Below, piece by piece: positions 1,481 to 47,245 of a stretch of 64,000 nucleotides of DNA. Each line of letters begins with the position of its first letter. The stretch's first letter is position 1. The translations under genes and the position numbers were made by a program. This DNA comes from Alphaproteobacteria bacterium (GTDB lineage Bacteria; Pseudomonadota; Alphaproteobacteria; Bin95). The stretch lies in contig OZ224045.1 of NCBI GenBank assembly GCA_963665325.3, positions 1,184,001-1,248,000 of the forward strand, written 5' to 3'. The notes beneath the pieces are model-generated. The model ran no database searches and had not been told where the DNA came from. It was given only the letters and a program-made list of their open reading frames with translations.

Positions 1481-2974
1481 TCAAAAATATCGTTCAAACA
1501 AGCACGATATTGGTTTTGGCACTTCAAAAGTTTGATTTGTAACTCGGTTTGGGAGGCCAGAAAAGACACTACCGCCTTTCTGAGCCTGACAAACCCAATC
1601 GTGTGGCTTGAAATAAGGAGTTTTCCCGATTACTGTCCGGTTCGAAAACGTGTTTTCAATCAGTATACGCTTTTCTGTGGGATCAAGTGTTTCGTATAGT
1701 AATGAAAGGCGTTTTGTGAGTTCGATAAAGTGTTTGAGATGATGGGAGAGGATGTTGGGATTTGGAAGCTGGTGGAGTTGTTCCTTTAGTTCTGTAAGTG
1801 TAGTTATCGTTTCATGTTTTTTTGTTAGATATGTTTGATTGTCAAGTGTTCCATCCACGAGTAGATCGGTGATACGTTCAAGTCGTTTCTCTTCTGCATG
1901 TATTCGTAGTTTCAAGGAGTGTTGTTGATGTTTCTGCTCAAGCTCGATACACGCGGCATTCCAGTTGCTTTCCATTTGGTCGCAAGCGTCCTTGGTAAAC
2001 TCGTACATTCGTAGTGCAGAAGTGATGTGTTCGTCCAAAACTTCTTCACGCAATGTCTTGGTCGGACAGTTGCGTCCATGACAGCGGTAATAAACATGTC
2101 CTTTCTGCAACTCGGGTGTCATAGGAAGTTTGCAAAGCCCGCAACGAAATAGACCACGAAACACATGGTGGTGCTTAGTCTTCTTGGGACCATACTTGCC
2201 AGCCTTGATGTCTTGTACTCGCTTGAACAGAGAAACGGGAATGATTGGTTCATGTATTCCTTGGTAAGTTTCACCGCATCCTCGCAAGAAAATGACTCCG
2301 GTATAGAAAGGGTTGCGAAGCATGGTCTCAATTCCACACATACTGAGAGGACGACCGTTCTGGTTTCTGAAGCCCTGCCGGTGTATCTCTTCGCGCAGAC
2401 TCCGTAGTGAGTGCTGGCCGGTGGCATACAACTCGAAGGCTTGTCTGACAAGCTGTGCTGTCGTCGGGCATGGTGTCTTCGCCTGTCCTTTCCCGTTGTC
2501 CAGATATCCCAAAGGTGCTCGGAAGGGATACAACCCCTGCTTTAGGCGGCCTCGGATACCCTTCCTGGTCTCCTCACGGAGGTTGCGGATATAGTCGGCG
2601 GCAATGACAGCGAGCATGTCAGCCGTGAGCCGTCCTCCCCGGGTAGTGAAGTCAAGACTTTCGGTCGCGACGTAGACGTCTATTCCCTGGTCGGGAAGCT
2701 CGGAGACAATCGACCAATCCTTGAGGTTCCTGGCGGAGCGGTCAATCTTGTGCATGATGAGACCTGTCGCCGCCCCCTTTCGCAGCTGTCGGAGCATGTT
2801 GTTGAAGACTGGCCTGCCGCTCTTTGCAGCAGTTTCTTTTTCTTCAAACCATTTCGTGACGTACAGCTCATTTTTTTGAGCAAAGGAGACAATAGCGTCC
2901 TTCTGCTCCTGCAAGGATACCCCCTCCCCTTGCTTCACTGTACTGACCCTAATGTATCCGTAACAAGTTTTCAT
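1481..2974 (-). CDS. large serine recombinase (resolvase, recombinase and Zn-ribbon domains)
   Basis: YIRVST catalytic motif, GRPVF, KIDRSARN, APLGY, LRNPFYTG, GIHEPII, CGLC/YYRC Zn ribbon, coiled coil. Confidence 0.95.
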   Translation of the reverse strand: MKTCYGYIRVSTVKQGEGVSLQEQKDAIVSFAQKNELYVTKWFEEKETAAKSGRPVFNNMLRQLRKGAATGLIMHKIDRSARNLKDWSIVSELPDQGIDVYVATESLDFTTRGGRLTADMLAVIAADYIRNLREETRKGIRGRLKQGLYPFRAPLGYLDNGKGQAKTPCPTTAQLVRQAFELYATGQHSLRSLREEIHRQGFRNQNGRPLSMCGIETMLRNPFYTGVIFLRGCGETYQGIHEPIIPVSLFKRVQDIKAGKYGPKKTKHHHVFRGLFRCGLCKLPMTPELQKGHVYYRCHGRNCPTKTLREEVLDEHITSALRMYEFTKDACDQMESNWNAACIELEQKHQQHSLKLRIHAEEKRLERITDLLVDGTLDNQTYLTKKHETITTLTELKEQLHQLPNPNILSHHLKHFIELTKRLSLLYETLDPTEKRILIENTFSNRTVIGKTPYFKPHDWVCQAQKGGSVFSGLPNRVTNQTFEVPKPISCLFERYF

Positions 2975-3176: not shown

Positions 3177-4346
3177 TCACTCCCGTCCAGGGGGAGGCAA
3201 GGTAGTCATGGTGAATGGTCGGCTCGGCTCGCCGTCGATCATCATGCGGATGAAGGCGTGATGGTTGTGCAGGTTCACCAGGTCCCGCGCTTCGCCGTAG
3301 TCAAGCTGCGCGGCGAGGAGCGGTGCGTCAGAGGCGCCGACCCTGAAGCAAATCATGGTACCGACATTCCCCATGATTGAGGCAAGGACCGTATCGCGGT
3401 TCTGTTTCGTGTGTTGCTGACTGAGGACGACGCCGAGGCAATATTTTCTTGTCTCCGAGAGCAGGTCGGCAAGGGTCTCGGTCGTGAAGGAATGAAACTC
3501 GTCGACGTAGAGGAAGAAGGCACGCCGATTCCCCTCGGGCACGTCGTGTCGGGTGAACGCGGCGTTTGTCATCGCGGACACCAGCAATCCGCCGAGGACG
3601 TTGGTAATGTCGCCCCCGATACGTCCCTTGGCGAGATTGACGATGAGTGTCTGCCCTTCGTCCATGATCCTACGGAACCGCAGCGGTTCCTTCGGCTCGC
3701 AGAGTGCGGTACGGACCACGGGATGGGCGAGGAACGCTCCGAGCTTGTTGGCGATCGGGGCCAATCCGTCCGCTGCCTTCTTGTAGTTCATCGCCGGATA
3801 TTCCCTGATCCAGAACTGCTTGACCTGTGGGTCCGCGATATGAGCGATGGTCTGCTTCCTGAAGGCGCTGTCGAGGAAGAGGCGCAGAATATCGCGAAGG
3901 TCGGTGCTGGGGGTATCGAGCAGTGCCAGGATGGCGTGGCGCAGCAAGTGCTCCATGCGCACGCCCCAGGCATCCGTCCACTGCTTGCGCAAGGTTTCGA
4001 TCAATCCGGAGGCGATGAGCGGTCGGAGTGCTGGCGAGGTCCGCGTCAGCGGGTTGTAACCGTACGGGCTGTTTGGATCGGCAATATCCCATGAAATGGC
4101 AGTGTCGGCACAACGCTCGGAGAGAGCGTCAGCAAGATCGCCATGCGGATCGATGAGAGCGAACCCTGTCCCGTGTTCGGCGTCCTGCACCGCCATATTC
4201 AAAAGCAGGGTGGATTTCCCCGTGCCGGTCTGACCGATGATATAGGTGTGCATGAAGCGGTCGTGCTCCCGAAGACCGAACGGCACCATGCCCTGCCGGT
4301 CATTCGCCCGGCCGAGTATGAGAAGTGGGTTGTTTGCACTTGCCAT
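3177..4346 (-). CDS. VirD4/TrwB-like (HerA-FtsK superfamily) ATPase, type IV secretion DNA-binding domain protein, no TM anchor
   Basis: HTYIIGQTGTGKS Walker A, IDPHGD, LYVDEFH Walker B, SETRKY, NVGT.ICFRVG; start placed at MASANN (4346). Confidence 0.9.
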   Translation of the reverse strand: MASANNPLLILGRANDRQGMVPFGLREHDRFMHTYIIGQTGTGKSTLLLNMAVQDAEHGTGFALIDPHGDLADALSERCADTAISWDIADPNSPYGYNPLTRTSPALRPLIASGLIETLRKQWTDAWGVRMEHLLRHAILALLDTPSTDLRDILRLFLDSAFRKQTIAHIADPQVKQFWIREYPAMNYKKAADGLAPIANKLGAFLAHPVVRTALCEPKEPLRFRRIMDEGQTLIVNLAKGRIGGDITNVLGGLLVSAMTNAAFTRHDVPEGNRRAFFLYVDEFHSFTTETLADLLSETRKYCLGVVLSQQHTKQNRDTVLASIMGNVGTMICFRVGASDAPLLAAQLDYGEARDLVNLHNHHAFIRMMIDGEPSRPFTMTTLPPPGRE

Positions 4347-4797
4347 GGGGCAATGATGGCGTTTCGTCCTGCCGTGTACCACTCCCTGCCGTTCTCGATC
4401 ATCGCCATTCCCGAATATCGGGAATGGTCGGTACTTTGTTGCCGTCCCTTCGTTCTCCATTATGGATACAGAACCAAAGGAAGAAGGCCCAGGAAGTACT
4501 GAGGACGACGGACGTAGACATGTCTTACATATCGTGTTGTGGCAGTCGTGCCGGTCGTCATTGCTTTGGCGGTCATCTTGTTCGTTTTCGAGCCGGATAT
4601 ACCCGTTCTTCCCAAGGAGGATCGGTCGGCTCTGGATTGAGGCGTTCACGTCGATGAACCTGTCTCAGTCGGGGAGAGAGTAATCGCCGTTTGCGAGTCT
4701 CGTGCTCGGAGCAATGGGGTGAAAGGACGGCAGTCCTTTCGCGTCTCTTGTCTCCGGAGCGCGCTATATCTCCCACCTTACTCGCTACAGATATACC

Positions 4798-5636: not shown

Positions 5637-5784
5637 CCAACCGGTTCGTTTGATTGTTGCGTAGTGCCGTCGTGGCATCGACGTCTGTGCGCATGCGCTT
5701 GCGTGCCCGCCGGCGAGGCAATGGCGATATTGCCTTGCGCGCGGTCATGTGCTTGGCTCCATGTTGCAAACACGCCTTGGACTT

Positions 5785-6010
5785 CCCGCTCTGTCGGGTC
5801 GTCCGCTGAATAGAAGAGCCTGATACCCGGCAAGGGGTAGCTCCCCGCGCTTGGCGAATAAGCGGAAACCTCCTGATTCCAGGGTGTGTTTGCAACGGCC
5901 CGACGCCAGCCGGCGTCGAGCTACGCAACCGACTGGAGGAAGACCATGTTCAACCGCTTCGCCATTACCACCGCCATCGCCTTTGCGCTTGCCGCCTGTG
6001 GAGGCGGCGG
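5785..6010 (+). repeat. conserved structured leader plus signal-peptide coding region, copy 1
   Basis: Colinear with 12109-12334 (CCCGCTCTGTCGGGTCG..GCTGAATA..AGCCTGATACCC..GGGGTAGCTCCCC..GCAACGGCCCG..CAACCGACTGGAG..ATGTTCAACCGCTTC). Confidence 0.92.
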
Positions 6011-6848
6011 GTCGGGAGGCAGTCCGAAAACCACCATGAACGACGAGAGTAAGACCGGAAATACGCCCATGGCGGAAAGGCCAGCCCCGCAAGCCGTAAG
6101 GACCTTAGGTGAAAACGAACTGCTAATCGGCAGGGCTAGTAGGTCTCAGCATGTAGTGGGCTCGGAGTATATCAGAAAGCCGATTCCCGCTGGGGTTACG
6201 TGGGTAACGGCGACTGAATATCGCGTATACGATGTTGTCAATAGGAGTTACAGCCCTCAAGCAGCAGAGGAAGATGGACTGCTTAGCCAGTCCTTCTATT
6301 ACGGTCATTGGTCAGACAGAAATATGATGCTGTATTTCGGCGGTTGGCAATACGATCCGCTGACGATAAGGCGGATAGCTCGTTTCAACGTCAGCCTAGG
6401 GAATGATGAAATCATAGGGTCGGTTTCTGGCGTTCAGCCACTAACAAAATTTGCAGACAGTCCCCGCATCCAATCTCAGAAGATGGTGAATTACGGCGGG
6501 ACTCTTGTTGGTTTTACCACAAGCAACAAACAGCCTTTGGGAGCAGAAGTAAGCATCCAACTCAACTTAGGAAACGACGTGACAGGCACATTTGATCTCG
6601 CCGGGCTCTCCACAATTGAACGCGATGGCTCTCTGAAACCCTTTCTTGGGGGGAACCTCCACCATGACATTGCTGTCACCGGCAATACCTTCACTACAAC
6701 GGGCGGTGACCCTGGAACCGTAACAGGCTTCTTTGCCGGTGAGACTCACCAAGCCGCAGCAGGAACAGTCCAGCATTCCGCTTTCACCGGCGCTTTCGGT
6801 GCCGAACCTTTTGGCTCCTCGGAACCAACGGCGCGAGCGCCGAATTGA
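5946..6848 (+). CDS. surface lipoprotein with TbpB-like C-terminal beta-barrel
   Basis: RBS GGAGGA, MFNRF..ALAAC lipobox, Gly/Ser tether, C-terminal GFFAGETHQAAAGTV..GAFGA. Confidence 0.8.
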   Translation: MFNRFAITTAIAFALAACGGGGSGGSPKTTMNDESKTGNTPMAERPAPQAVRTLGENELLIGRASRSQHVVGSEYIRKPIPAGVTWVTATEYRVYDVVNRSYSPQAAEEDGLLSQSFYYGHWSDRNMMLYFGGWQYDPLTIRRIARFNVSLGNDEIIGSVSGVQPLTKFADSPRIQSQKMVNYGGTLVGFTTSNKQPLGAEVSIQLNLGNDVTGTFDLAGLSTIERDGSLKPFLGGNLHHDIAVTGNTFTTTGGDPGTVTGFFAGETHQAAAGTVQHSAFTGAFGAEPFGSSEPTARAPN

Positions 6849-7018
6849 CAGCCTCCGATAGTTATGGCGAGGCCATCAACGACACTCGTATTCGCAGCAC
6901 CGGTGGTGTCAGCGGAACGCTCCTCGCCCGCCTTTACGGAAACGACCATGAACAAATCGCAGGCTCAATCGAGCGTGAAGACCTCATAGCAGCGACTCCC
7001 GCTCAAGCCCAAGGGTAG
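6803..7018 (+). pseudogene. orphan C-terminal fragment of another TbpB-like lipoprotein (different frame)
   Basis: Translates ..GGVSGTLLARLYGNDHEQIAGSIEREDLIAA, matching the C-terminal barrel motif of both intact lipoproteins. Confidence 0.6.
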
Positions 7019-7061
7019 TCGCGTAAGCGAGCTAATGTCGCAAAGCAGCGTTCAGGGTTGG

Positions 7062-8024
7062 TCATACCCGACCGATCCTGAACGCCGACAATTCTGCCCT
7101 GAGCCAGTCGCCCTCCAGCAGATCAAGGTCGGGCATCGGTGGTGAGAATACCGTGCCGAATACCTCCCATGACCGAAACAGCATCCGCGAGCGCACCGAT
7201 GGTGCGTACTGCTCAACCAGCGGGAGGAGTTGTGCGAGGCGTGCTTCGTCGTTGACAACCGTCAAGACTAGCATCGGTGCACGGAGCCGGAGGTGGTCGC
7301 GGTAGCGGTTGCCTCCGAGATAGTTTTCATATTGCAAGAGCGAGCGCCGCCAGCTCTTTCTGTTGAAATTTGCCGACACGGCTGGTTCGGTTGCGCGATC
7401 GGCCTCAACAAGAAAGCAGCGATACCGACTGCCCTCGGGTGTCTTGTACTCCAGGCCGAAGAGCGCGTCGGGAACAAGGTCGATGCAACGCGTCTGCCCC
7501 TCGTCGTGGATATGCACCGGAGCGCGAAGCGCGACATCGGCGCGACCGAGAAGAAACGACTGCGAGAGGAACGCGAGGTCATCCCGTCCCCTCACCGCCG
7601 CTTCAATCGACGCGGTGATGCAGGCGACCATGCAGGCATGCAGCCACGGACCGTTCGTTGCCGGACGATGCAGATACCAGTACCCCGCGTCACTGAGCGC
7701 TTGCTCTGAGGCTGGCGTGAGATCGTAGACCAACTGCTTGTAGCGGCTGTCGAGCGTGCGGAACTGTTGTGGCGGCCGGGAGAGGTAGGCGCTGCCGTGC
7801 GGTGTGTTCTCCTCGTTGAAGAGATCCGTGAGTCGCTCTTTCGCGCGTTTCCCGCTTTTGTGCGTGTCCTTGGCGAGTGCCAGAAGAAACGACGATGGGA
7901 GCGGTCCATGCTCGTAGAGTTTTTGAAACCATAGAAGGTCGCGGTCCGTCGGTGTAACCCGCTTGCCGCTCGATATGCGATGCGCGCGCTTGCGCCGTCC
8001 GATGGCGTCGTGCTGTTCGCTCAT
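7062..8024 (-). CDS. replication-relaxation family protein (MOBC-like PD-(D/E)XK relaxase)
   Basis: N-terminal wHTH (TDRDLLWFQKLYEHGPL..RLTDLF), H in WLHACM, VPDALFG..FLVEADRATE..K..LLQY; start MSEQH directly after the upstream stop. Confidence 0.85.
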   Translation of the reverse strand: MSEQHDAIGRRKRAHRISSGKRVTPTDRDLLWFQKLYEHGPLPSSFLLALAKDTHKSGKRAKERLTDLFNEENTPHGSAYLSRPPQQFRTLDSRYKQLVYDLTPASEQALSDAGYWYLHRPATNGPWLHACMVACITASIEAAVRGRDDLAFLSQSFLLGRADVALRAPVHIHDEGQTRCIDLVPDALFGLEYKTPEGSRYRCFLVEADRATEPAVSANFNRKSWRRSLLQYENYLGGNRYRDHLRLRAPMLVLTVVNDEARLAQLLPLVEQYAPSVRSRMLFRSWEVFGTVFSPPMPDLDLLEGDWLRAELSAFRIGRV

Positions 8025-8025
8025 C

Positions 8026-10245
8026 TCAGAGCTCAAAGCCGGCGTCGGTCCCGCTCTCGTCTTGAGGACGCCGTTTGTTCGACCGGTTGCTCTTGCCAGT
8101 CGGTGTTTCCATGGACGGGGCCGGTGTCTCGTCCTGTCCGCCATTCCGGTGCCTGCGCCGCCTGCCTCGGCGCTGTTCTTGTCTCGGTTCGTCCTTCTGT
8201 TCAACCGTTTCGGAGGCCATTGGCCCTCGCGTTTGGAACTGCTGATCAATGACGGAGTGGTGCTCCGCGTAGCGCTTGCGCATGCTCGACCGCAGGCCGT
8301 CTCTCTCCTTCGGAGTCATTCTCGGTTGCCGTTCAAGCGCGCCGAGGGGGAACCGGAGCGGCACCGCCGTTCTTGTCGTGCCCCGCAGATGTGCGGCGAA
8401 GCAACCCTTGGGCTGTCGTTCAATGAAGTCCGGGTCGCAGGAGAGCATCGATGCAAGTGCGCGAGCGTCCTTGGCGGAGACGCCACCGGCGAACTTTATG
8501 GACGTATTGGCAGCGAAGGCGTCCTGCAAACGTGGCTCAAGCTGTCCGAGGTACTGGTGCGCCAGCACCATACCCACCTTGTACTTGCGCGCCTGGGCGA
8601 GGATGATGCCGATGTTGCGGTCGAAATAGTCGGCTGCCTCGTCGATATAGACAAATGTGGGCAGCCGTTCCCGTTCCGGCAGGGTCGCCCGCTCCTGTGC
8701 CGCTTGGGCGATGAGCGCGATAAAGAAGCGCCCGAATATCTCGGTGCCCTGTTCCTTGAGCAAATCCTTGGCGGTGTTGATGAGGATAACCTTGCCGGCG
8801 TTCATCTCGTTGAAGAGGTCGAGCTTCGAGCGTGGCGAAGAGAACATCCGATCGAAGGTCTGATTCTCGAGAATACCCCAGAGCCGGCGCAGTATCTGCT
8901 TTTTGGTCAGGTCGAACTCGCGCGAGGAAAATTCGGTCTCGAAGAAGTGCCGCGCGGAGCCCGTGAGCGTGGCAATGTGCTCGGCGAACTGCACATGGCC
9001 GTTTGGTTCCATAAGTTGACGGAGGGTATGGATGGTGGCGTTCGGCACCACGAGCATGAGTCGGGTGACGTAGCGGAATACCACATTCTGCTTCTGCGTC
9101 ATTTCGGCGGAAAGGAGCGACCCGAGCACGAAATCGTAGAGCTCCAGAATGGAATTAGTCAGTCGTTCTCGTTCAAGCGGCGCGTAGCCGGTAAGGCGGT
9201 CAAGGCCCGCGTCAAAGAGATTGAGCGATACCGGATACTCGACATCGCTCGGATCGATCAGCACGATTCGGTCGTGCAATGCTCCGCCAGGGGCAAACAC
9301 CGCGAGGCCGGCGATGGTCTCGATGAGGTCGCCCTGACTGTCGAGGACAATCACGGAGCGCTTCCCTGCCGCCACCGCCTCAAGGTCGCAGCCAACAAGG
9401 TACTGCAAGGTCTGGGTTTTGCCGTGTCCGCTGCCGGCAACGATATGGTGGTGCTCAAAGCGCGCGTCGGTCGGTAGCGGGAAGTCGATCTGCTGCGTGA
9501 AGAAATCAACAAGCGGCGTGCCACCAAGATAGGTGTCGAGAAGCTCCGCCGGATCGCTGAGTAACGATCTTGACGGTAGCTTCGGTGCACGGGAGAGTGC
9601 CTTCGCATTGTCGGGATTGCCTCCCGATGCGGCAATCGCGTTTCGCTCCAGACGACCGCGCAGCCGATTGCCTACGTCGGCGCGGACCAGCTCCTCGTCA
9701 AAGAATGCCGAGCAGGCGTTCTCCGTCATGGCGCCGGCACGGTCGAGATTGTTGACGAGATCGGTGGCGACGGTGATGTCCGTGTCGCTTGGCGCCTCCG
9801 CGAGGAGCGCAGGACAGGCGTGAAAGATCGGGGAGAGGAACCCCACGACCGCCTGTTGCAGCACCGCTCTCGCCTGCGGAAGGTTTCTGACAAGCGCGAG
9901 TTGGTAGTTGAGCGCGTCGCGCACTTCCCACCACTCAGCCACCGTGCGCTTCGTACACCAGTCGATGTCGGGAAGCCGGAACATAGATTCATAGTTGAAC
10001 AGTCGGGTTACCAGAATGGCGATCGGCTCAGCCTGGCGATGCTCGGCACTCAATCCGAAGGCGCTGAGCACATCGACGACAACATCCACAATGAGCCGGT
10101 CGCGCCCATGCGCTTCGATAAGGTCATGCTTTCTGAACAATCGACGCGCACGGTCTGCAAGCGCCCGTGCTTCATCCTCGTCATCGTACCAGAAGAGGCC
10201 ATGCGTGAAGGCGTGCCATCGGGGACCGAGGTGGAGGCGAAGCAT
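8026..10245 (-). CDS. type IV secretory system conjugative DNA transfer family (VirD4-like coupling) ATPase
   Basis: RFEHHHIVAGSGHGKT Walker A, DSQGD, YIDEAADY Walker B, QARKY, AHQYLGQL, ANTSIKFAGG. Confidence 0.9.
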   Translation of the reverse strand: MLRLHLGPRWHAFTHGLFWYDDEDEARALADRARRLFRKHDLIEAHGRDRLIVDVVVDVLSAFGLSAEHRQAEPIAILVTRLFNYESMFRLPDIDWCTKRTVAEWWEVRDALNYQLALVRNLPQARAVLQQAVVGFLSPIFHACPALLAEAPSDTDITVATDLVNNLDRAGAMTENACSAFFDEELVRADVGNRLRGRLERNAIAASGGNPDNAKALSRAPKLPSRSLLSDPAELLDTYLGGTPLVDFFTQQIDFPLPTDARFEHHHIVAGSGHGKTQTLQYLVGCDLEAVAAGKRSVIVLDSQGDLIETIAGLAVFAPGGALHDRIVLIDPSDVEYPVSLNLFDAGLDRLTGYAPLERERLTNSILELYDFVLGSLLSAEMTQKQNVVFRYVTRLMLVVPNATIHTLRQLMEPNGHVQFAEHIATLTGSARHFFETEFSSREFDLTKKQILRRLWGILENQTFDRMFSSPRSKLDLFNEMNAGKVILINTAKDLLKEQGTEIFGRFFIALIAQAAQERATLPERERLPTFVYIDEAADYFDRNIGIILAQARKYKVGMVLAHQYLGQLEPRLQDAFAANTSIKFAGGVSAKDARALASMLSCDPDFIERQPKGCFAAHLRGTTRTAVPLRFPLGALERQPRMTPKERDGLRSSMRKRYAEHHSVIDQQFQTRGPMASETVEQKDEPRQEQRRGRRRRHRNGGQDETPAPSMETPTGKSNRSNKRRPQDESGTDAGFEL

Positions 10246-10254
10246 CTGAATGCC

Positions 10255-10761
10255 TCAGAGCACAAACCGTCGAGCTTCCTCGACCGGAAGCGGACGAACC
10301 TTACGTTGCTCGGTACCGCCCCAGTGCTTTGCACTCTCAAGCAGTTGGCGGAGATAGCCGGCGGCATTCTCCAGCCATGCCTCTTTGCGAATGAGCTCGA
10401 CGACACTGACGCAGGAGAAGTATCGACCGTGGAGCAAATCCTTGACCAGAATTGTCTCTCGCTTCTCGGTGAAATACCAGAAAGCGCCGCCGCCTCCCGC
10501 AAACACGCTCAAAAGAAATGCCAGCACCATACCCAACCCCATCGCGAGAAGAGCGAATACGATGAGAAAGATCGCGACCCCTGCGATGACGGTGTTTCTG
10601 AACAAGTGTTCCTGTTCCGCCTGAATCATGACCGCGTTGTCGAGTCGGTAGCGCTTGAGCAATTCCTTCTCCTCGTCATCCAGCTCAATCTTGCCCCATA
10701 ACTTGAATCGTACTCTTCTCAGTCTTCCAAGGGTTTGTTCCCGTTTGAATAGCAGTTCCAT
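10255..10761 (-). CDS. hypothetical membrane protein (2 TM helices), co-oriented with the ATPase and relaxase
   Basis: Hydrophobic VIAGVAIFLIVFALLAMGLGMVLAFLLSVFAGGGGAFWY; AAGGAAGAAGAA upstream of ATG. Confidence 0.8.
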   Translation of the reverse strand: MELLFKREQTLGRLRRVRFKLWGKIELDDEEKELLKRYRLDNAVMIQAEQEHLFRNTVIAGVAIFLIVFALLAMGLGMVLAFLLSVFAGGGGAFWYFTEKRETILVKDLLHGRYFSCVSVVELIRKEAWLENAAGYLRQLLESAKHWGGTEQRKVRPLPVEEARRFVL

Positions 10762-11104
10762 TTCTTCTTCCTTTTCTGTCTCTCTGCTATTCCCGTTCTC
10801 TCTCAATGTGACCGTAGGGAACATTGGGAGAGGGGAGAGGGCGAGGGGTGGGGTTTGGGGTAGCTATGCATGAACCCGCCCAGGGTTCATTCTCTTTGGA
10901 GGAGGAAAGAGAATGAAGTCGCGGAAAGCGGCGGAGACGCGGGGGCATGGAATGTGTCGCTCTGGATGGGGATATGGTCGGCAGGGTCATGGGGATACAG
11001 GAAGTCCTTGGGCGTGTCCCCATCGGGAGGGCTCGCGGGTTTAGCATGATTGGATAGAGAGATGGGCGGCCGGGTGTGTGCACGCCCGACCGCCCTGCTC
11101 CCAT

Positions 11105-11302
11105 TCAGGAGTGTCGGGCAGGAGTTTCGCGACGGTCCATCCTGGACTGGAGCCAGTCGAGCACCTCCTCCTCTACCCATCCCACGCGGTTCTCGCCGAG
11201 CTTGACCCGCTTGGGGAATCTGCCCGCCTTTTCCAGCCGTGCGATGTGCTGCGGTGAGTACAAGACCAACTCCTTCAGCTGGCGTTTTGAAAGTATCCTC
11301 AT
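11105..11302 (-). CDS. alpA: AlpA family phage regulatory protein / excisionase
   Basis: YSPQHIARLEKAGRFPKRVKLGENRVGWVEEEVLDWL; RBS GGAGG. Confidence 0.92.
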   Translation of the reverse strand: MRILSKRQLKELVLYSPQHIARLEKAGRFPKRVKLGENRVGWVEEEVLDWLQSRMDRRETPARHS

Positions 11303-11402
11303 CTCGATGCCTCCGTGAGTGGAGAGCATCGCGATGCCCCAGGGTTGACAATGACCTAGGTGGCGCGATGGTAGCGGCAATCTGGAGTACGGAAAAGCGC
11401 CC

Positions 11403-12017
11403 ATGTCCGCACAGACAGTCGTTGCAGAAACGAGACGAAGGGCAACCTACCAGGATGTGCTCAATGCGCCGCCGCACAAGGTGGCCGAGGTTGTTGAGGG
11501 AGTGCTCTACACCAACCCGAGACCGGCACCACGACATGCGATAGCCAGTTCCGGAATTGGCGCAAGCATTTCACCTCCTTTCAACTACGGACGCGGCGGC
11601 CCTGGTGGCTGGTGGATCATCGATGAGCCGGAACTGCATCTCGATGAAGATATATTGGTGCCCGACCTCGCAGGCTGGCGGCGGGAGCGTATGTCGGCGA
11701 TCCCCGCCACCGCGTATTTCACGCTTGCTCCGGACTGGGTGTGCGAAGTGCTCTCGCCCTCCACTCGAGCGCTCGACCAGGGACGGAAACGGGCACTCTA
11801 TGCCCGCGAAGGGGTAGGCTATCTGTGGTTCGTCGATCCCGACGCCCGCACGCTTGAAGCGTTTGAGCTGAACGACCGCCGCTGGGTGTTGCTTGAGACA
11901 CTGACGGGCGATGCCACGGTCTCGCTGCCGCCGTTCGAGGCGATCCAATTCAGCCTCAGTGACCTCTGGGTCGATATAGAGTCGGAGCAGGACACCGGTC
12001 GGGACGGAACCGTCTAG
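11403..12017 (+). CDS. Uma2 family putative endonuclease
   Basis: ATYQD..AEVVEG..PRPAPRH..VPDLAGWR..APDWVCEVLSPST..KRALYAREGV..LWFVDP. Confidence 0.93.
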   Translation: MSAQTVVAETRRRATYQDVLNAPPHKVAEVVEGVLYTNPRPAPRHAIASSGIGASISPPFNYGRGGPGGWWIIDEPELHLDEDILVPDLAGWRRERMSAIPATAYFTLAPDWVCEVLSPSTRALDQGRKRALYAREGVGYLWFVDPDARTLEAFELNDRRWVLLETLTGDATVSLPPFEAIQFSLSDLWVDIESEQDTGRDGTV

Positions 12018-12108
12018 CCTGATCGGTCCCCTCATGGACGGCCCTCAGCACACTGCTTGACTCATTCTTTGCCCGCTTTTACCGTCATATCTGCGACGTT
12101 CACACAGA

Positions 12109-12334
12109 CCCGCTCTGTCGGGTCGCCCGCTGAATATAACAGCCTGATACCCAGCACGGGGTAGCTCCCCATGCGTGGTGAATAGGCGGGACTTCACATC
12201 TGTTCTGTGTGACGTCGCAACGGCCCGGCGCCAGCCGGTGCGGGTCACGCAACCGACTGGAGAGGGATCATGTTCAACCGCTTCACTATTGCTGCCGCCG
12301 TCATCCTTGCGCTTGCCGCCTGCGGAGGCGGCGG
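12109..12334 (+). repeat. conserved structured leader plus signal-peptide coding region, copy 2
   Basis: Same length as, and colinear with, 5785-6010. Confidence 0.92.
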
Positions 12335-13250
12335 TTCAGCAGTTGTTGGGCCGGTTGGCTCCAAGATGGAATCTGAATCCAGCTCAGGCACCAACAGTGT
12401 GCTATCCAAGTACCATCGCCATCTAAACGACGGAGATTCAAATGACGCATGGCCTGAAGTCGGAGACTACACCCATATCTTTCATTTCCTCGTTGGCGAA
12501 TCCATCGGTGATGGATTATTTGCCATAGCTCCATCAAATGTTTCGTGTCAGGAAGAGAGTTGTTGGGCTTCCGAAGCAGCGGCTAATTCGCTAGGGTCGG
12601 TTGCGGGAGTTCAACGTGTTATGGAGCATGCCAATATCCCCGTGTATCGAATACACGGAGAGAATACCTTTGCGGGGTTCGACTACAACACCTACGGAGC
12701 GTGGCTCGAATTCTCATCGTTCACCGTTGCGCGCACCTGTGACATCGGCGAAGATTGCGGCTTACGCGCCGCCTTCGACAGTGCCATACCAGCCGTTGGC
12801 GGCCAGCCGTCTGGATCCAAACCGAGAGGGCTAGGGTCGGCCTCTTGGCTCGGTGTCGTGATTGCCGCCGATACGCAAACTTACAATCTCATCCTCGGTG
12901 ACGCGGAGATAAGTATTAACGACCTAACTGCAGTCACTCCTCTTGTGGATGTCACACTGACTAGGCTGTGGGATGTCGATGCCGGTATCGCACGCGCCGA
13001 CATTCGATGGCATGGCCTTCCCATTAGTGATAGCAGTCAAACCATCAATGTGCCTGTAGTCAACGCTTCGCCGGCTGGTGCGTTTGGGCGTGGCCACATC
13101 CCGTTTCCCTACTCCGGTGTAGTCACCCACGACGGACGCGATGACTACGTAATGGGACAGTTCTTCGGCAATGCGCATCAGGAGGTAAGCGGAAAATTCG
13201 TACATCGAGCCACATCCACGGCAGGAGTGTTCGGCGGGAAACGTCAATGA
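12270..13250 (+). CDS. surface lipoprotein with TbpB-like C-terminal beta-barrel
   Basis: MFNRF..ALAAC lipobox; YGAWLEFSSF, GSASWLG, GQFFGNAHQEVSGKF..GVFGGKRQ. Confidence 0.85.
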   Translation: MFNRFTIAAAVILALAACGGGGSAVVGPVGSKMESESSSGTNSVLSKYHRHLNDGDSNDAWPEVGDYTHIFHFLVGESIGDGLFAIAPSNVSCQEESCWASEAAANSLGSVAGVQRVMEHANIPVYRIHGENTFAGFDYNTYGAWLEFSSFTVARTCDIGEDCGLRAAFDSAIPAVGGQPSGSKPRGLGSASWLGVVIAADTQTYNLILGDAEISINDLTAVTPLVDVTLTRLWDVDAGIARADIRWHGLPISDSSQTINVPVVNASPAGAFGRGHIPFPYSGVVTHDGRDDYVMGQFFGNAHQEVSGKFVHRATSTAGVFGGKRQ

Positions 13251-15210: not shown

Positions 15211-16383
15211 GTGCAATCCCTTTCTTCCCAGGCTGCAACCGGAGCCGGGAGAAATCCGTTGCCGAGAACCAACCTCACCGAGACCCGCGTCAGGGTGCTC
15301 AGGCCTCGCAAGTCCGTCCGCGAGGTTCGCGACAGCAAGCTCAAGGGCTTTGGCGTCCGTGTGTCGCCCTCGGGCCGCAAGCAGTTCTTCATCCACTGCC
15401 AGCATAGCGGCGAACGCATCTGGAAGATCGTCGGCGACGCCGGAAGCATGAGCGTCATGGACGCGCGGGCTTCGGCTGCCGAAATGCTCACCGCCATCAG
15501 GCGCGGCAAGGAGGCGCTCCACGCGCCCGGCGAGACACTGTTCGAAGCCATCGCCGAAGCCGCCTTCCAGCGTCACGAGCGGCGCTGGAAACCGGGTACG
15601 ATGGTCGTGAACCGCAGTCATCTGCGCAACCGGATCATGCCGCATTTCGCCGGGCGACAGATTGCCGAGATCGACCGGCAGGAGGTGAGGAACTGGTTCG
15701 CCCGCCTGCGCGCGACGCCAGTTGCGGCAGACAGGTCCATGCCGGTCCTGTCCGTCATCATGAGGGAGGCGGAACGGATGGGCATGCGTCCGGAGGGTTC
15801 CAATCCCTGCCGGGGCATCCGGCGCTACCGTCGCAAGGGTCGCGAGCGGTTCCTCTCCGACGACGAAATCCGCCGGCTGTCCGCAAGGCTCAGGGTGTAT
15901 GAGACCCGTTGGGTGCCGCAGGTCGCCATCATCCGCCTGTTGCTGCTCACGGGCTGCCGCAAGAGCGAAATCCTGACCCTGCAATGGTCCGACTACCGCG
16001 ACGGCCGCCTGTTCCTGCGCGACGGCAAGACGGGGCCCCGAACCGTGTGGCTGTCCGACCCGGCCCGGGCCATTCTCGACGACCTTGCGCCGAAGGGCCG
16101 ATGGGTATTTCCCGCATCGCGGGCCGACCGGCCCGGCAGCGCGGCCTGGCTCGACAGGTTCTGGATCAGGGTCCGAGCCGAGGCGGAACTGGAGGATGTG
16201 CATCTTCATGACCTGCGCCATACCGTAGCCAGCCTGGCTCTCAGGCAGGGCGAGACCGTTCTGTCCATCGGCCGGCTGCTCGGACATCGCAGGGCGGAGA
16301 CGACGCTGAAATACATCCACCTCGCGGACGCCATGGTGCAGGACGCGGCCGAGACGGTCGGAAATGCGCTGGAGGGAGAGTGA
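15211..16383 (+). CDS. tyrosine recombinase/integrase with N-terminal arm-binding domain
   Basis: GFGVRVSPSGRK; TGCRKSE, KTG, HDLRH, LLGH, TTLKY. Confidence 0.95.
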   Translation: MQSLSSQAATGAGRNPLPRTNLTETRVRVLRPRKSVREVRDSKLKGFGVRVSPSGRKQFFIHCQHSGERIWKIVGDAGSMSVMDARASAAEMLTAIRRGKEALHAPGETLFEAIAEAAFQRHERRWKPGTMVVNRSHLRNRIMPHFAGRQIAEIDRQEVRNWFARLRATPVAADRSMPVLSVIMREAERMGMRPEGSNPCRGIRRYRRKGRERFLSDDEIRRLSARLRVYETRWVPQVAIIRLLLLTGCRKSEILTLQWSDYRDGRLFLRDGKTGPRTVWLSDPARAILDDLAPKGRWVFPASRADRPGSAAWLDRFWIRVRAEAELEDVHLHDLRHTVASLALRQGETVLSIGRLLGHRRAETTLKYIHLADAMVQDAAETVGNALEGE

Positions 16384-17576
16384 TGGCGGGCAGGGAACGG
16401 ATGAAACTTACCGACGCCGCCGTCTCCCGGCTTCGCCCCCGCGAGCGGGAATACACGGTCTGGGACACGCGCGTGGCCGGCCTCGGCGTCCGCGTGCGGC
16501 CTTCCGGCGGGCGCAGCTATGTGCTGCTTCTGGACATAGGTGGGCGCACGAAGCGCGTCTCGCTCGGTCCGGTCGGTGTGAAGAGCCTGGACGAGGTTCG
16601 CAGGGAATGCCATGCCCGCAGGGCGAACCCGGAGCCGGAGGAAAAGCCCGTGCCGGCTCGTCAGGTCCCGCTGTTCCGGGACTTCGTCGCCGGCGCATGG
16701 AAGGAAGCCCATTTCGACGGCTACAAGCCTTCGACGCAGAAAACCGCCCGGTATCAATTGTCAGGCCAGCTTCTGCCGACATTCGGAGCGAAGCCGTTGA
16801 ACCGCCTCGGGGAAGCCGGAATCAAGCGCTGGTTCGACCGCCACAGCCGGACAGCCCCGAGCAACGCCAATCACTGCCTTGCCTGCCTCCGACAGATCCT
16901 GAACTTCGCCGTCGCCTGCGGTTATATCGAAAGCAACCCCGCCAATGGCATCGAGTGCAACCGGCGCCCGAAGCTCACCCGATTCCTGTCCCGGGAGGAA
17001 CTCAGACGCCTCTACGCTGCCCTCGACGTGGAGACGGGCAAGGGGAACATGCAGCCGGCCGACATCATCCGCCTCCTGCTGCTGACCGGCTGCCGCAAGA
17101 GCGAGATCGTCAACCTCAGCTGGTCGGAAGTCCGTGAAGAGGGATTGGCCCTCACGGACTCGAAGACCGGTCCGAGGACGGTCCCGCTGGGCAGTCGGGC
17201 GCGCGCCATTCTCGACCGGCAGCCGCGCAGCGAGAGCCCTTTCGTGTTTCCCTCGCCGCTCGACCCCGTACGCCCGCGCGATTCCGATCTCCCGTTCTGG
17301 TACCGCGTCAGGCGCGAAGCCGGCATCGAGGACGTGCGCCTTCATGACCTGCGTCATACGATGGCCAGCCACGCCGTGATGAACGGCGTGCCGGTGCCGG
17401 TGGTCTCGCGCCTGCTCGGGCACTCCAATGTTCATATGACGCTGCGCTACGCCCATCTCGCCGACCGCGATATCGAGGCGGCGGCAGAGCGGACCGGGCA
17501 GGCGATGGCGCAACTCATGGGACTGGGCCTTCAAATGCACCCCTTGGATACGCCGAACGGCGGGTCGTCCGGATAA
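16383..17576 (+). CDS. tyrosine recombinase/integrase (second paralogue)
   Basis: WDTRVAGLGVRVRPSGGRSY; TGCRKSE, SKTG, HDLRH, LLGH, MTLRY; TGATG stop/start overlap. Confidence 0.95.
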   Translation: MAGRERMKLTDAAVSRLRPREREYTVWDTRVAGLGVRVRPSGGRSYVLLLDIGGRTKRVSLGPVGVKSLDEVRRECHARRANPEPEEKPVPARQVPLFRDFVAGAWKEAHFDGYKPSTQKTARYQLSGQLLPTFGAKPLNRLGEAGIKRWFDRHSRTAPSNANHCLACLRQILNFAVACGYIESNPANGIECNRRPKLTRFLSREELRRLYAALDVETGKGNMQPADIIRLLLLTGCRKSEIVNLSWSEVREEGLALTDSKTGPRTVPLGSRARAILDRQPRSESPFVFPSPLDPVRPRDSDLPFWYRVRREAGIEDVRLHDLRHTMASHAVMNGVPVPVVSRLLGHSNVHMTLRYAHLADRDIEAAAERTGQAMAQLMGLGLQMHPLDTPNGGSSG

Positions 17577-45638: not shown

Positions 45639-46710
45639 TCAAAAGGTCTTCGAGACTCCGATTGTGGCACCCTGATTGCACCAGGCGTTAATCGGGATAC
45701 CGGACCGGTTCCGCTCGACGAAAAAGCCGACAAAGGGGGCGAAGCCGCGATATTGCAACGCGCGGTGGAGCAGGTTCACCGAGAGGCGCGTCTGCCGATC
45801 CGAACGCGTCTTCCCGAAAAGAGGGTCCCTGCCGGCGTAGCGCCGCCAGTTGACGGCCGCCCTGGGCGAGACCGAGAGGCCGCCTGCGAAGGCATGGGAA
45901 ACCCCGAGGGCGAGACCGCCGAGCCGGCTGCCGTGACGGCCCTCTCGGGCGTCGACATGTTCGAGGTCGAGTTCGGCCCTGAAGGTCGTCCGGGAGTAGA
46001 GTGCGTAGTCGAGGCCGGGCCGCAGGGTAACGGTCCAGCCGTTCAGCCCGGGATGGTCCGGATGGCCGCGGTGCTCCGCGCCGAGCGCGGCGTCGAGCCG
46101 CAAGGCCGGCGACAGGCGCACGCGGCCGCGCACCCAGGGGCCGATCCCGTCGCTGTAGCGCTTTCCCCCAGCCATCGCCGGCCGAGGCGCAGGCCTCCGG
46201 ATACGCTGCCGCCATCGAACAGTCGCGCCGCCCCGATATCGCCCTGCACCGAGATGTCGTTCCAGTTGGATCGCTCGTAGAGCTTCGCCGCCGCCGAAAC
46301 CGCCAGCACGCCGCGCCAGTCGTGGGCAAGGACGGGCGAATGTTGCGCTCCCGTGCTGACCAGCAGGCCCGTTCCGGATGCTTCGCGGGCATCCTCGTCG
46401 AGACGGAACGGCACGTCGCCGATACGTATTTCGTTGTCATCCGTGCGCTTCGCCGGATTGCTCTCCGGCAGAATCGCCGCGGAGACCGAGACCGACCATC
46501 GCTTGCGTGCATCGATCCGGTCGAGCCACGCCTCTACCGCCTTCTCGACGGAAGATGGCAGTTCATCCGCGAGCGAGGCCTCGAAATGGAACCGGGCCTT
46601 CCCGTCGCGTCCGAGCAGGCCGTAGATGCGGGCCAGTTCGAGCCGGACGCGGGTCAGATCGGGGCGGACCGCGAGGATGGATTCGAGACGCCCGGCGGCC
46701 TCCGGCAGGT
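45639..46710 (-). pseudogene. surface lipoprotein assembly modifier (Slam/DUF560) remnant, 5'-truncated and frameshifted
   Basis: TPR RPDLTRVRLELAR..ARFHFE, WSVSVS..PESNP, barrel strands, DPLFGKTRSD, C-terminal VSKTF. Confidence 0.8.
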
Positions 46711-47022
46711 GAGCCGTTTTCCGAGGCGGTATTCGACGGCGTCGAGATGGCGCCCTACGGCGTCGATGTGCCGACGGTCGATCTCCGAGAAGCGTTCGAG
46801 GATTCGCCCTTCGCTGCGGTCGATATTCTTTCCGGTTCCGCCGACGGCTTCGATGAGTTCGTTCCGGAGTTTCCGGCCCGGGATATCGAGGTGGTATCCG
46901 CGAGGGTTCGCGGTGGCGCCCGCGCGCACGCGCAAGGCTGCGACCCTGGCGTCGTCTGGTTCCATTCCGGCGTCTTCGAGCGCCTTGGTGATGCCGTCCA
47001 GATCGGGGGGCGATTTTGCCAC
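46711..47022 (-). pseudogene. hypothetical coiled-coil protein fragment abutting the Slam remnant
   Basis: ITKALEDAGMEPDDA.. N-terminus; the frame runs into Slam sequence. Confidence 0.35.
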
Positions 47023-47245
47023 TGGTGGAGCCTGCCCGTTTTCGGCGTGTCGGACAAGTTGCTACGCGGCGCCCATTGGAGGTTCGGTGCCGCGCAGCAT
47101 CAACCTGGCACAGACCGCGAAGGAAAGTCGATCCGCCGATTGGAGCCAGCATTCGGCGCTGGACCATGAATGCGCTTCAGGTCAAGCTGAGGAGGATGGC
47201 GCTGTGAGGCCCTGCCCGTCTGTCGGGCCATAGCGGAGGCAGGCA

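Follow-up and report, generated by a model that had tools for sequence, protein, structure and literature searches.

A structured RNA leader, predicted to be a long variant of the sRNA-Xcc1 family, precedes cell-surface genes in an alphaproteobacterium and across phyla

The stretch of DNA analysed here, which is called the window throughout, comprises 64,000 nucleotides (nt) of the genome of an alphaproteobacterium of the lineage Bin95 (assembly GCA_963665325.3, contig OZ224045.1, positions 1,184,001 to 1,248,000) and encodes two lipoproteins, A and B, that share the N-terminus MFNRF...ALAACGGGGS. Both genes are preceded by a copy of the same leader, which measures about 180 nt from the start of its outermost helix P0 to the Shine-Dalgarno sequence (SD) in copy A and about 170 nt in copy B. 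As far as comparison of sequences goes, this leader is a strongly supported structured RNA and a new long variant of the sRNA-Xcc1 family (RF02221) that is multicopy, is found across phyla and stands before cell-surface genes. In a first-pass annotation of the window positions 5785-6010 and 12109-12334 were described as colinear, and BLAST bears this out with 80% identity across all 226 bases. The shared stretch opens 161 nt upstream of the start codons at 5946 (gene A) and 12270 (gene B) and ends past the lipobox. The likeness of the two leaders exceeds chance, since the covariance model R1 gives 126.5 bits for copy A and 122 bits for copy B (E about 1e-22).

The identity between the two loci varies along their length, with 47% in P0, 84% from the linker L1 to the 3' strand of helix P2 (the core), 81% from the 3' strand of helix P1 to the start codon, 83% in the signal peptide down to GGGS and 56% over the 300 nt of coding sequence after GGGS. 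The genes do therefore diverge after the lipobox, as the first-pass annotation had stated, and its two further remarks on the proteins were also correct: a weak C-terminal barrel motif, G.F.G..H....G.FG, is common to both, and the mature domains are AT-richer, the GC content changing from about 0.61 to 0.49-0.52 inside both genes. The alignment of proteins A and B is confined to this weak C-terminal motif and to the N-terminus, where 22 of 47 residues are identical.

RNAalifold, applied to ten copies of the leader from this genome, gave four helices, namely P1 (GUCGGGUCG/CGGCCCGAC), P2 (CCCGCU/AGGCGGG), P3 with 3 bp and the hairpin P4. These were tested in two alignments, one made with MAFFT from 38 diverse copies and not fitted to R1, the other made from 101 copies aligned to R1. 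In the MAFFT alignment 93.5% of the cells are paired, compared to 90.0% after shuffling, and none of 500 shuffles was equal on any measure. In the set of 101 copies, which is fitted to R1 and so biased towards its structure, 94.2% of the cells are paired, compared to 88.1% after shuffling, and both-side changes occur in 154 cells compared to 45; again 0 of 500 shuffles were equal, and all slid controls stayed below 54% paired. P1 is paired in 96.8% of the cells in the larger set and in 98.2% in the MAFFT alignment, and its pair 11-187 is UG in 59 copies, CG in 22 and UA in 20, with mismatches in 0 of 101. P2 (95.5% paired in the larger set) shows C-G, U-G and U-A exchanges at three positions, P4 shows both-side changes at all of its 8 pairs, and P3 is almost invariant. 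Helices P1, P2 and P4 are thus supported by covariation over 101 copies. The internal loop between P2 and P3, GAAUAnAAnA opposite GAAUA, is nearly invariant, as is the GCAAC that precedes the 3' strand of P1 (P1b), and the loop bases G25, A26, A27, A29, A31, A32 and A34 do not vary in the 38 copies. The leader thereby has some of the features of a riboswitch, i.e., an aptamer-like conserved core, covarying helices and invariant junction bases. By eye, the internal loop fits neither a K-turn nor a loop-E motif, and a resemblance between the loop of P4 and ops, an element of RfaH-dependent operons, was dropped as P4 is variable and missing in short forms.

The fold proposed in the first-pass annotation was right in part. 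Its hairpin GGGG-TAGCT-CCCC and its hairpin before the ribosome-binding site, with loop AGCC, are present and correspond to P4 and P6, while the two other stems fail: the outer stem CCGC/GCGG, drawn with the first CCGC, and the stem TGTCGGGT/GCCTGATA are together paired in 70.6% of the cells compared to 69.6% after shuffling, and 31 of 500 shuffles were as good (38 copies). GCGG is instead the partner of the second CCGC, in P2, and GTCGGGTCG is the partner of CGGCCCGAC at long range, in P1. The substitutions in P6 had been said to preserve pairing, which holds with a qualification, as between A and B one is compensatory (A-U to G-C) and one turns G-C into G-U. Three further hairpins are weak. 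The pairing of L1 with the 5' strand of P1 (P1a), called P1', has a mean of -8.7 kcal/mol and beats shuffles at z<-1.65 in 27 of 100 copies, and variant copies carry CUCGGC in place of the GCCGGG of P1a. The local hairpin P5 has a mean of -5.9 kcal/mol and reaches z<-1.65 in 27 of 100 copies. For the pairing of P1b with the following 40 nt, where P6 forms, 87 of 100 copies reach at least -10 kcal/mol, but only 30 of the 100 beat shuffles.

A point absent from the first-pass annotation is that the element begins upstream of 5785, with the 5' strand of P0. The minimum-free-energy fold of copy A contains this stem of 19 bp, and the fold of copy B agrees with a stem of 16 bp and one bulge, the P0 sequences of A and B being unrelated. 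Among the 100 copies with sufficient flank a P0 duplex of at least 12 bp is found in 100 of 100 (median 18 bp, range 14-30 bp). The two strands of one copy pair with a mean of -29.5 kcal/mol, compared to -14.5 kcal/mol for strands from different copies, and in 90 of the 100 copies the own partner is better than all 30 foreign partners. The P0 3' strands (P0b) have a between-copy identity of 0.38. P0 is the most strongly co-varying helix of the leader, because its pairing is kept while its sequence differs in almost every copy. Alignment of the upstream DNA of the 100 copies at the base where P0 pairing begins reveals a promoter-like profile, with T at -36 and -35 (frequencies 0.52 and 0.62), A at -11 (0.54) and T at -7 (0.57). 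Since this profile stands at a fixed distance from P0, the transcript probably begins at the base of P0, which in copy A would be at about 5763-5765. The coordinates of both copies and of their surroundings are collected in Table 1.

Table 1. Features of the two leader copies, the lipoprotein genes and the mobile-element genes, in positions of the window. SD, Shine-Dalgarno sequence; ORF, open reading frame; T4CP, type IV coupling protein; a and b, 5' and 3' strand of a helix.
Feature	Position	Strand	Details and basis
Copy A, weak promoter-like signal	TTGCCT 5730-5735; TTGGCT 5753-5758	+	17-nt spacer; sequence, 100-copy profile
Copy A, P0a (GTTGCAAACACGCCTTGGA)	5763-5781	+	partner 5878-5896; 19-bp duplex, -32.8 kcal/mol
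Copy A, L1 (CTTCCCGCTCT)	5782-5792	+	CCCG may form the small alternative hairpin P1' with CGGG of P1a
Copy A, P1a (GTCGGGTCG)	5793-5801	+	partner 5896-5904
Copy A, P2	5802-5807/5861-5866	+	RNAalifold, pair counts
Copy A, internal loop	GAATAGAAGA 5808-5817 opposite GAATA 5856-5860	+	
Copy A, P3	GCC 5818-5820/GGC 5853-5855	+	
Copy A, P4	lower stem 5829-5831/5849-5851; GGGG 5834-5837, TAGCT, CCCC 5843-5846	+	
Copy A, L2	5867-5877	+	
Copy A, P5 (CCTG-ATTC-CAGG)	5872-5883	+	alternative local hairpin; L2 and start of P0b
Copy A, P0b	5878-5896	+	conserved GCAAC at end
Copy A, P1b (CGGCCCGAC)	5896-5904	+	overlaps P6
Copy A, P6, loop AGCC	5901-5907/5912-5918	+	hairpin before the ribosome-binding site
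Lipoprotein gene A	5946-6848	+	300 aa, lipobox LAAC-GGGGS; SD GGAGG 5935-5939; ORF call
Copy B, promoter-like signal	TTGACT 12057-12062; TACCGT 12080-12085	+	17-nt spacer; sequence; spacing matches profile
Copy B, P0a	12092-12108	+	partner 12204-12219; 16 bp and one bulge, -27.5 kcal/mol
Copy B, R1 match	12108-12240	+	122 bits
Copy B, P1a, P2a, internal loop (GAATATAACA), P3a	12117-12125, 12126-12131, 12132-12141, 12142-12144	+	alignments
Copy B, P4 hairpin, P3b, loop GAATA, P2b	12158-12170, 12177-12179, 12180-12184, 12185-12190	+	
Copy B, L2 and P0b (12204-12219), P1b (12221-12229)	within 12191-12244	+	fold, sequence
Copy B, P6, loop AGCC	12224-12232/12237-12244	+	
Lipoprotein gene B	12270-13250	+	326 aa; SD GGAGAGGG 12259-12266; ORF call
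Serine recombinase	1481-2974		
T4CP-like	3177-4649 and 8026-10245		
Replic_Relax	7062-8249		
Two tyrosine integrases	15211-17576		

In this genome the leader lies at 13 places, found alike by BLAST with its first 130 bases and by R1; nine of these places score 63-130 bits with R1 and four are degenerate or truncated. The comparison by BLASTN with relatives, which had been suggested at first pass, was likewise positive within the genus, where 14 of 16 genomes have a match, with 2-11 matches per genome. In the two other genera of the family BLAST found a match in 0 of 20 genomes, and R1 at E<=1e-4 found matches in 9 of 150 other families of the class. A degenerate pattern of 28 letters, taken from the most conserved stretch, was scanned through a species-representative genome collection and found at least 97 loci, where about 2 matches would be expected by chance (an estimate from the information content). 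Among the pattern matches listed, all 80 with a title are metagenome-assembled genomes (MAGs), which come from about ten phyla: 36 belong to Alphaproteobacteria, 17 to Gammaproteobacteria, 8 to Gemmatimonadota, 6 to Acidobacteriota and 4 to Binatia, two are named 'Candidatus Multivorans/Multivoraceae', and Nitrospirales, Latescibacterota, Phycisphaerae, Chloroflexota, Opitutia, Syntrophobacterales and an unassigned proteobacterium are represented once each. The spread across phyla is not an artefact of binning, since several of the matches sit on chromosomes of 3-9 Mb. Many of the isolate names resemble those of bin sets from sponge and coral holobionts, and a link to this habitat is taken as a lead and not as a result. 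Excerpted text of PMC7883664 includes the SB06xx_bin series with the Entoporibacteria that are associated with sponges. In the genome studied here, identical copies of leader plus GT25 glycosyltransferase gene and identical matches to the Slam translocon family considered below each lie on two contigs (C1:804-814 kb against C3:1329-1338 kb, and C2:103-106 kb against C4:1097-1100 kb), and such pairs are either large duplications or assembly redundancy at contig ends.

The genes behind the leader are mostly exported, as judged from crude ORF calls and crude regular-expression tests of the N-termini. A downstream ORF was called in 86 of 100 copies, and 26 of these 86 ORFs are lipobox-like, with 31 more showing a hydrophobic N-terminus. 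Pfam families were searched in 71 of 110 called ORFs, a set that leaves out A, B, near-identical paralogues and most ORFs below about 100 aa and in which many ORFs are N-terminal fragments ending at the edge of the locus, and 25 of the 71 matched a family. The matches comprise GT25 (5), CsgG (5, one also with LpoB), rhodanese lipoproteins (3) and outer-membrane-protein beta-barrels (2), and one each of TbpB_B_D, ankyrin repeats, leucine-rich repeats (LRR), dienelactone hydrolase, inverse-autotransporter beta domain, Big_9/cadherin, methyltransferase, T5orf172, TM2 and a weak Gp10_C. In this genome the other copies stand before genes for GT25 glycosyltransferases, for additional lipoproteins and for secreted proteins. 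The connection to lipoproteins drawn in the first-pass annotation therefore covers a part of the downstream genes, and the leader is far more general than the lipoprotein family. Two MAGs, one from Acidobacteria and one gammaproteobacterial, have CsgG-like proteins behind the leader that share 63% identity over 162 residues, which points to a joint transfer of gene and leader. In a Latescibacterota and a Pseudomonadales MAG (loci L056 and L107) the leader stands before an ankyrin-repeat lipoprotein and a secreted LRR protein, both with eukaryote-like repeats.

For proteins A and B the family assignment is based on weak matches. Protein B matches PF01298 (TbpB_B_D) with 22.4 bits (cut-off 26) at residues 291-325, which form the last barrel strands, and the NCBIfam family slam_lipo (NF041636) with 22.7 bits (cut-off 80), and it has weak matches to NHBA and LbpB chains. 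Protein A alone has no match in Pfam or other families; it has 10 relatives, and the profile of this family matches the C-terminal barrel of NHBA (GNA2132) with E=7e-4 over about 105 residues and TbpB weakly, and one member carries PF01298 with E=6.7e-10. No family was matched by the N-terminal domains of A and B, and an AlphaFold2 model of protein A from 11 sequences was unusable (predicted local distance difference test, pLDDT, 32.9). The two proteins resemble the Slam-dependent surface lipoproteins of the TbpB, LbpB, NHBA and fHbp type in the lipobox followed by a Gly-rich linker and in the weak C-terminal barrel matches. They differ from these in that they stay below every curated cut-off and have no adjacent Slam gene, and 'Slam-type surface lipoproteins', understood as below the curated cut-offs, appears to be a reasonable name. 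The Slam translocon family SlipAM (PF04575) has 15 matches in the genome and none of these lies beside A or B; 15 is an unusually large set of surface-lipoprotein translocons. One SlipAM match, at C5:255393-256250 (-), is located about 4 kb downstream of a leader on the same strand (C5:260437-260569, -). The match nearest to A and B is an ORF of 178 aa at 45639-46175 (-) that covers only the C-terminal positions 109-288 of PF04575, and an ORF of 374 aa at 46043-47167 (-) without a Pfam match overlaps it just upstream in another frame; the two may represent a frameshifted or truncated Slam gene.

In Rfam the leader is at best distantly represented. A scan of the whole window at gathering score gave no match on either leader. 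Above gathering score the window holds a single Rfam match, RF02649, the Ruegeria Trans44 small RNA, with 193 bits at 11073-11336 (-), which falls between both lipoprotein genes within the mobile-element stretch. Scans of the two leaders by E-value returned a single match, a weak one of sRNA-Xcc1 on copy A (27.2 bits, E=0.006-0.014, gathering score 53 bits); copy B has no hit at E<=10, and a search of the whole genome with RF02221 gave no hit at the leader places. The idea that the leader might belong to a known Rfam family thus applies in a weak sense, namely as a distant long form of RF02221. In the cmscan alignment of copy A on RF02221 the helices P1 and P2, the loops and P3 superpose and P4 appears as an insertion of 31 nt. 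In other families of the class R1 also detects shorter copies that lack P4, and four of these short forms score 48, 37, 35.2 and 26.7 bits on RF02221, where the long form at locus L147 scores 27.4 bits. Conversely, in a sample of 151 genomes of the phylum RF02221 exceeds its cut-off in 24, and R1 applied to 12 of these bona fide loci hits 5 at E<=0.005 in the same place and 7 at E<=1. The link to sRNA-Xcc1 is real, because short copies lacking P4 exist, these score on RF02221 and R1 hits 5 of 12 RF02221 loci, and the leader is accordingly a long, P0-clamped and P4-bearing variant of the sRNA-Xcc1 family.

Each of the 12 bona fide RF02221 loci is followed, 24-109 nt downstream and in the same orientation, by an SD and an ORF, and in 3 of the 12 the ORF is Bro-N antirepressor-like, so that the whole sRNA-Xcc1 family looks like a family of leaders. 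In excerpted text, sRNA-Xcc1 is treated as a trans-acting small RNA with unknown mechanism (PMC2996969, PMC12189769 and 10.1101/2025.06.18.660453), and the last of these places it upstream of symE in integron cassettes. At some loci (for example L150 and L160 in the set L150-L161) the 5' flank is complementary to the downstream SD and start region, and from sequence short forms may also have an outer clamp, in their case over the ribosome-binding site.

P0 pairs a strand that lies outside P1 with a strand that lies inside it, and the linkers are too short for both helices to be accommodated (medians of 7 nt for L1 between P0a and P1a and of 1 nt for L3 between P0b and P1b, with 18 bp of P0), so that P0 and P1 cross and on this geometric argument are most likely mutually exclusive. 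Their coexistence as a pseudoknot was set aside as unlikely on the same linker lengths. We lean, by a modest balance of probability, towards the reading that the leader is a two-state RNA, a long form of the sRNA-Xcc1 fold, that co-regulates cell-surface genes. Transcription would start at the base of P0, and in state A the 5' end of the mRNA would be locked in the 18-bp helix, with P2-P4 formed and P6 using the 3' strand of P1, which is common to P1 and P6; a small hairpin of L1 and P1a might form in addition. In state B P0 would be open and the RNA would adopt the sRNA-Xcc1-like fold, with P1 closing P2-P4 and the small hairpin P5, which would expose a single-stranded 5' tail of about 20 nt and release the 3' arm of P6. 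Our best guess is that a common factor, either a protein or a small signalling molecule at the conserved loop, would tip the balance between the states, and that the output would be mRNA stability or read-through and not hiding of the SD, by which a set of cell-surface genes would be coordinated. Control via the 5' end (stability or processing) or via a loop-binding factor is favoured with moderate confidence, because SD accessibility is equal in both states, a general terminator is absent and P1', P5 and P6 are weak. The claim of a cis-regulatory RNA in the first-pass annotation, whose fold was partly wrong, is hence well supported as to a real, conserved and structured 5' leader, because of the covariation in 101 copies, the fixed position relative to the promoter-like signal and to SD and ORF, and the 13 places in the genome; the regulation itself is predicted.

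Several observations weigh against a two-state switch. State A exceeds state B in stability by 15.6 kcal/mol on average, and P0b is transcribed ahead of P1b, so that state B seems hard to reach without a helper or processing. The predicted accessibility of the SD and start region hardly changes, being 0.45 in state A and 0.41 in state B; among 73 copies, 13 have the higher value in A and 4 in B. T-runs after P1b are limited to 18 of 100 copies, which leaves no general terminator, and the advantage of P1', P5 and P6 over shuffles is weak. No metabolic theme unites the downstream genes, and this speaks against a classical metabolite riboswitch; a scan for consensus promoters was empty at both A and B. 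The bias of the 101-copy alignment is to be kept in mind here as well, and the start site, the transcript ends and the switching are all deduced from sequence. Two specific versions of a switch were abandoned: occlusion of the SD, as constrained folds of the 73 copies give no consistent difference in accessibility between the states, and a terminator or attenuator, as a terminator-like site inside the leader is found in copy A only, in addition to the scarcity of T-runs. This site consists of P5 and TGTGTTTG, a terminator-like pattern with a T-rich tail at 5871-5884 (+); in the copy B leader the terminator-pattern scan found no such site.

A static leader, i.e., a constitutive 5' module in which P0 shields the mRNA from decay that depends on the 5' end and insulates expression against the downstream gene and P1 is an sRNA-Xcc1-like relic, would account for the greater stability of the P0 state and its formation first during transcription, for the same SD accessibility in both states and for the attachment to many unrelated genes. 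We consider it unlikely, for in P1 pairing is maintained through exchanges among U-G, C-G and U-A, and pair 11-187 is free of mismatches in all 101 copies, which is unlike a relic, and the internal loop and the GCAAC junction are near-invariant across phyla, a conservation that the protection of an mRNA end does not need. It is improbable that the leader serves as the source of a trans-acting small RNA, with the core released by termination or processing and acting on other mRNAs: copies stand directly before a same-strand SD and ORF, the terminator-like hairpin and T-rich tail of copy A have no counterpart in copy B and a T-run after P1b is rare, and the sole variable part, P0, is base-paired and therefore offers no obvious exposed target seed. 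In favour of such an RNA it can be said that sRNA-Xcc1 and the sXF RNAs of Xylella are described as trans-acting in the literature, that a double-strand RNase could accept the perfect 18-bp P0 as substrate, that sRNA-Xcc1 was seen at about 88-100 nt on Northern blots (excerpted text of PMC2996969) and that seven homologues are transcribed in Xylella (excerpted text of PMC12189769). The element might also act at the level of DNA, as a miniature inverted-repeat transposable element (MITE), an attC-like site or another recombination site, and its multicopy and patchy distribution across phyla, the inverted repeats at its flanks and the reported presence of sRNA-Xcc1 in integron cassettes (excerpted text of 10.1101/2025.06.18.660453) could be read in this way. 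This is nevertheless very improbable: terminal inverted repeats as conserved as in a MITE are absent, the arms having 38% identity between copies with each copy self-complementary, and pairing that is kept despite this divergence indicates selection on the folded strand and not on transposase ends. Furthermore, the element keeps one orientation relative to promoter-like signal and ORF, sense-strand G-U pairs occur throughout, and blastn of the leader against 72,556 plasmid records gave no match.

The first-pass annotation also put forward that a constant cassette for expression and export is joined to variable mature domains, giving surface variation carried by a mobile island, and this is supported in part. 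Taken as the main point of the locus, a promoter-leader-signal-peptide unit recombined onto variable mature domains and thereby varying the cell surface is a possibility that we hold to be somewhat unlikely. The region from P1b to the start codon and the signal peptide are common to A and B, unlike P0 and the mature domain (identities above), the signal peptide MFNRF...ALAACGGGGS is found on proteins with different middles in other genomes, and both genes lie among mobile-element genes. In a mosaic test with 110 copies, 100 P0 clusters and 98 protein clusters, more than one protein family goes with 4 of the 100 P0 clusters, and more than one P0 with 5 of the 98 protein clusters. These mosaics are few, though, and could partly represent fast co-evolution of P0 in orthologues; the evidence comes from comparisons between different loci, and no swap event was seen. 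The cassette also leaves the RNA unexplained, and the leader precedes non-exported GT25 enzymes and unrelated exported proteins with quite different signal peptides. In the two-state reading the extra likeness between A and B through the signal peptide reflects a shared 3' module (P1b, P6, SD and signal peptide) that recurs on different mature domains, and module shuffling among leader copies is likely, probably within the invariant P1b region, as a side process that does not account for the RNA. As for the mobile island, the surroundings of A and B do carry recombinase, T4CP-like, relaxase-like and integrase genes (Table 1), and other copies of the leader are found on other contigs. A gene for a putative restriction endonuclease of the Uma2 family (PF05685, E=2.9e-25; 11403-12017, +) ends about 75 nt before P0 of leader B.

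What looked like a private duplication in one genome belongs to a large family of RNAs that escapes detection by Rfam 15. The comparative support is unusually strong, with more than 100 distinct copies, four covarying helices and two helices that are incompatible yet conserved. The long form marks genes of the envelope and of host interaction, including those for ankyrin and LRR proteins, in uncultured bacteria of many phyla, which suggests a shared post-transcriptional control of surface presentation that was spread by gene transfer. sRNA-Xcc1, an orphan 'virulence-linked' small RNA, gains a likely general role as mRNA leader, because 12 of 12 bona fide loci directly precede an ORF. A more far-reaching reading, which we regard as decidedly unlikely, is that of a horizontally spread sensor RNA in symbionts of marine invertebrates (of the sponge type) from about ten phyla, whose invariant internal loop would bind one common protein or one common signal, coming from the host or the community, and flip P0 versus P1. 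If true, it would coordinate surface remodelling across unrelated bacteria in one host, affecting Slam lipoproteins, GT25 enzymes for lipopolysaccharide, CsgG, porins, and ankyrin and LRR proteins, and sRNA-Xcc1 and its relatives would be cis-acting switches and not trans-acting small RNAs.

Riboswitches of the c-di-GMP-I (GEMM-I) type occur in many copies per genome before heterogeneous genes for surface, adhesion and secreted proteins. The leader shows no likeness to them in sequence or structure (Rfam scans of the leaders at E<=10), and no clear expression platform was found. It does resemble them in being multicopy, in the heterogeneous surface genes that it precedes, in its conserved junction bases and in its covarying helices. 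Within a limited collection of excerpted literature on riboswitches, structured RNAs and RNA motifs of sponge symbionts no prior description of the motif was found. By description only, the leader is also similar to the Brt1-9 RNAs of Bartonella, which are multicopy, highly structured, about 200 nt long and located just upstream of genes, and which were proposed to act both as small RNA and as cis 'riboswitch' and were linked to the surface adhesin badA (excerpted text of PMC5387305). The same excerpts report Brt1-9 as specific to Bartonella, with a terminator-like 3' end and placed before genes of helix-turn-helix (HTH) regulators, whereas the genes downstream of the leader are not HTH regulators. 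sRNA-Xcc1 itself, of about 87 nt, has a short P3 hairpin, while in the leader the P3 loop holds the extra helix P4 of about 31 nt, and the segment after P2 pairs with the 5' flank to form P0 instead of forming a local hairpin alone. The leader further differs in that no U-run follows P1 in A or B, T-runs being confined to the minority of copies given above, and in that it serves genes for surface and exported proteins, where sRNA-Xcc1 serves phage-type or symE-type genes. With sRNA-Xcc1, known as an 88-nt RNA from Xanthomonas campestris and as multicopy in Xylella, the leader shares the closing stem GNCGGG.../...CCCGNC, the asymmetric internal loop of P2 with AAUAnAA opposite GAAUA, a hairpin that lies after P2 and before P1b, and a tail resembling CACC. 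Both are found directly upstream of an ORF on the same strand, both are multicopy and horizontally spread, and the covariance models of the two hit each other in both directions.

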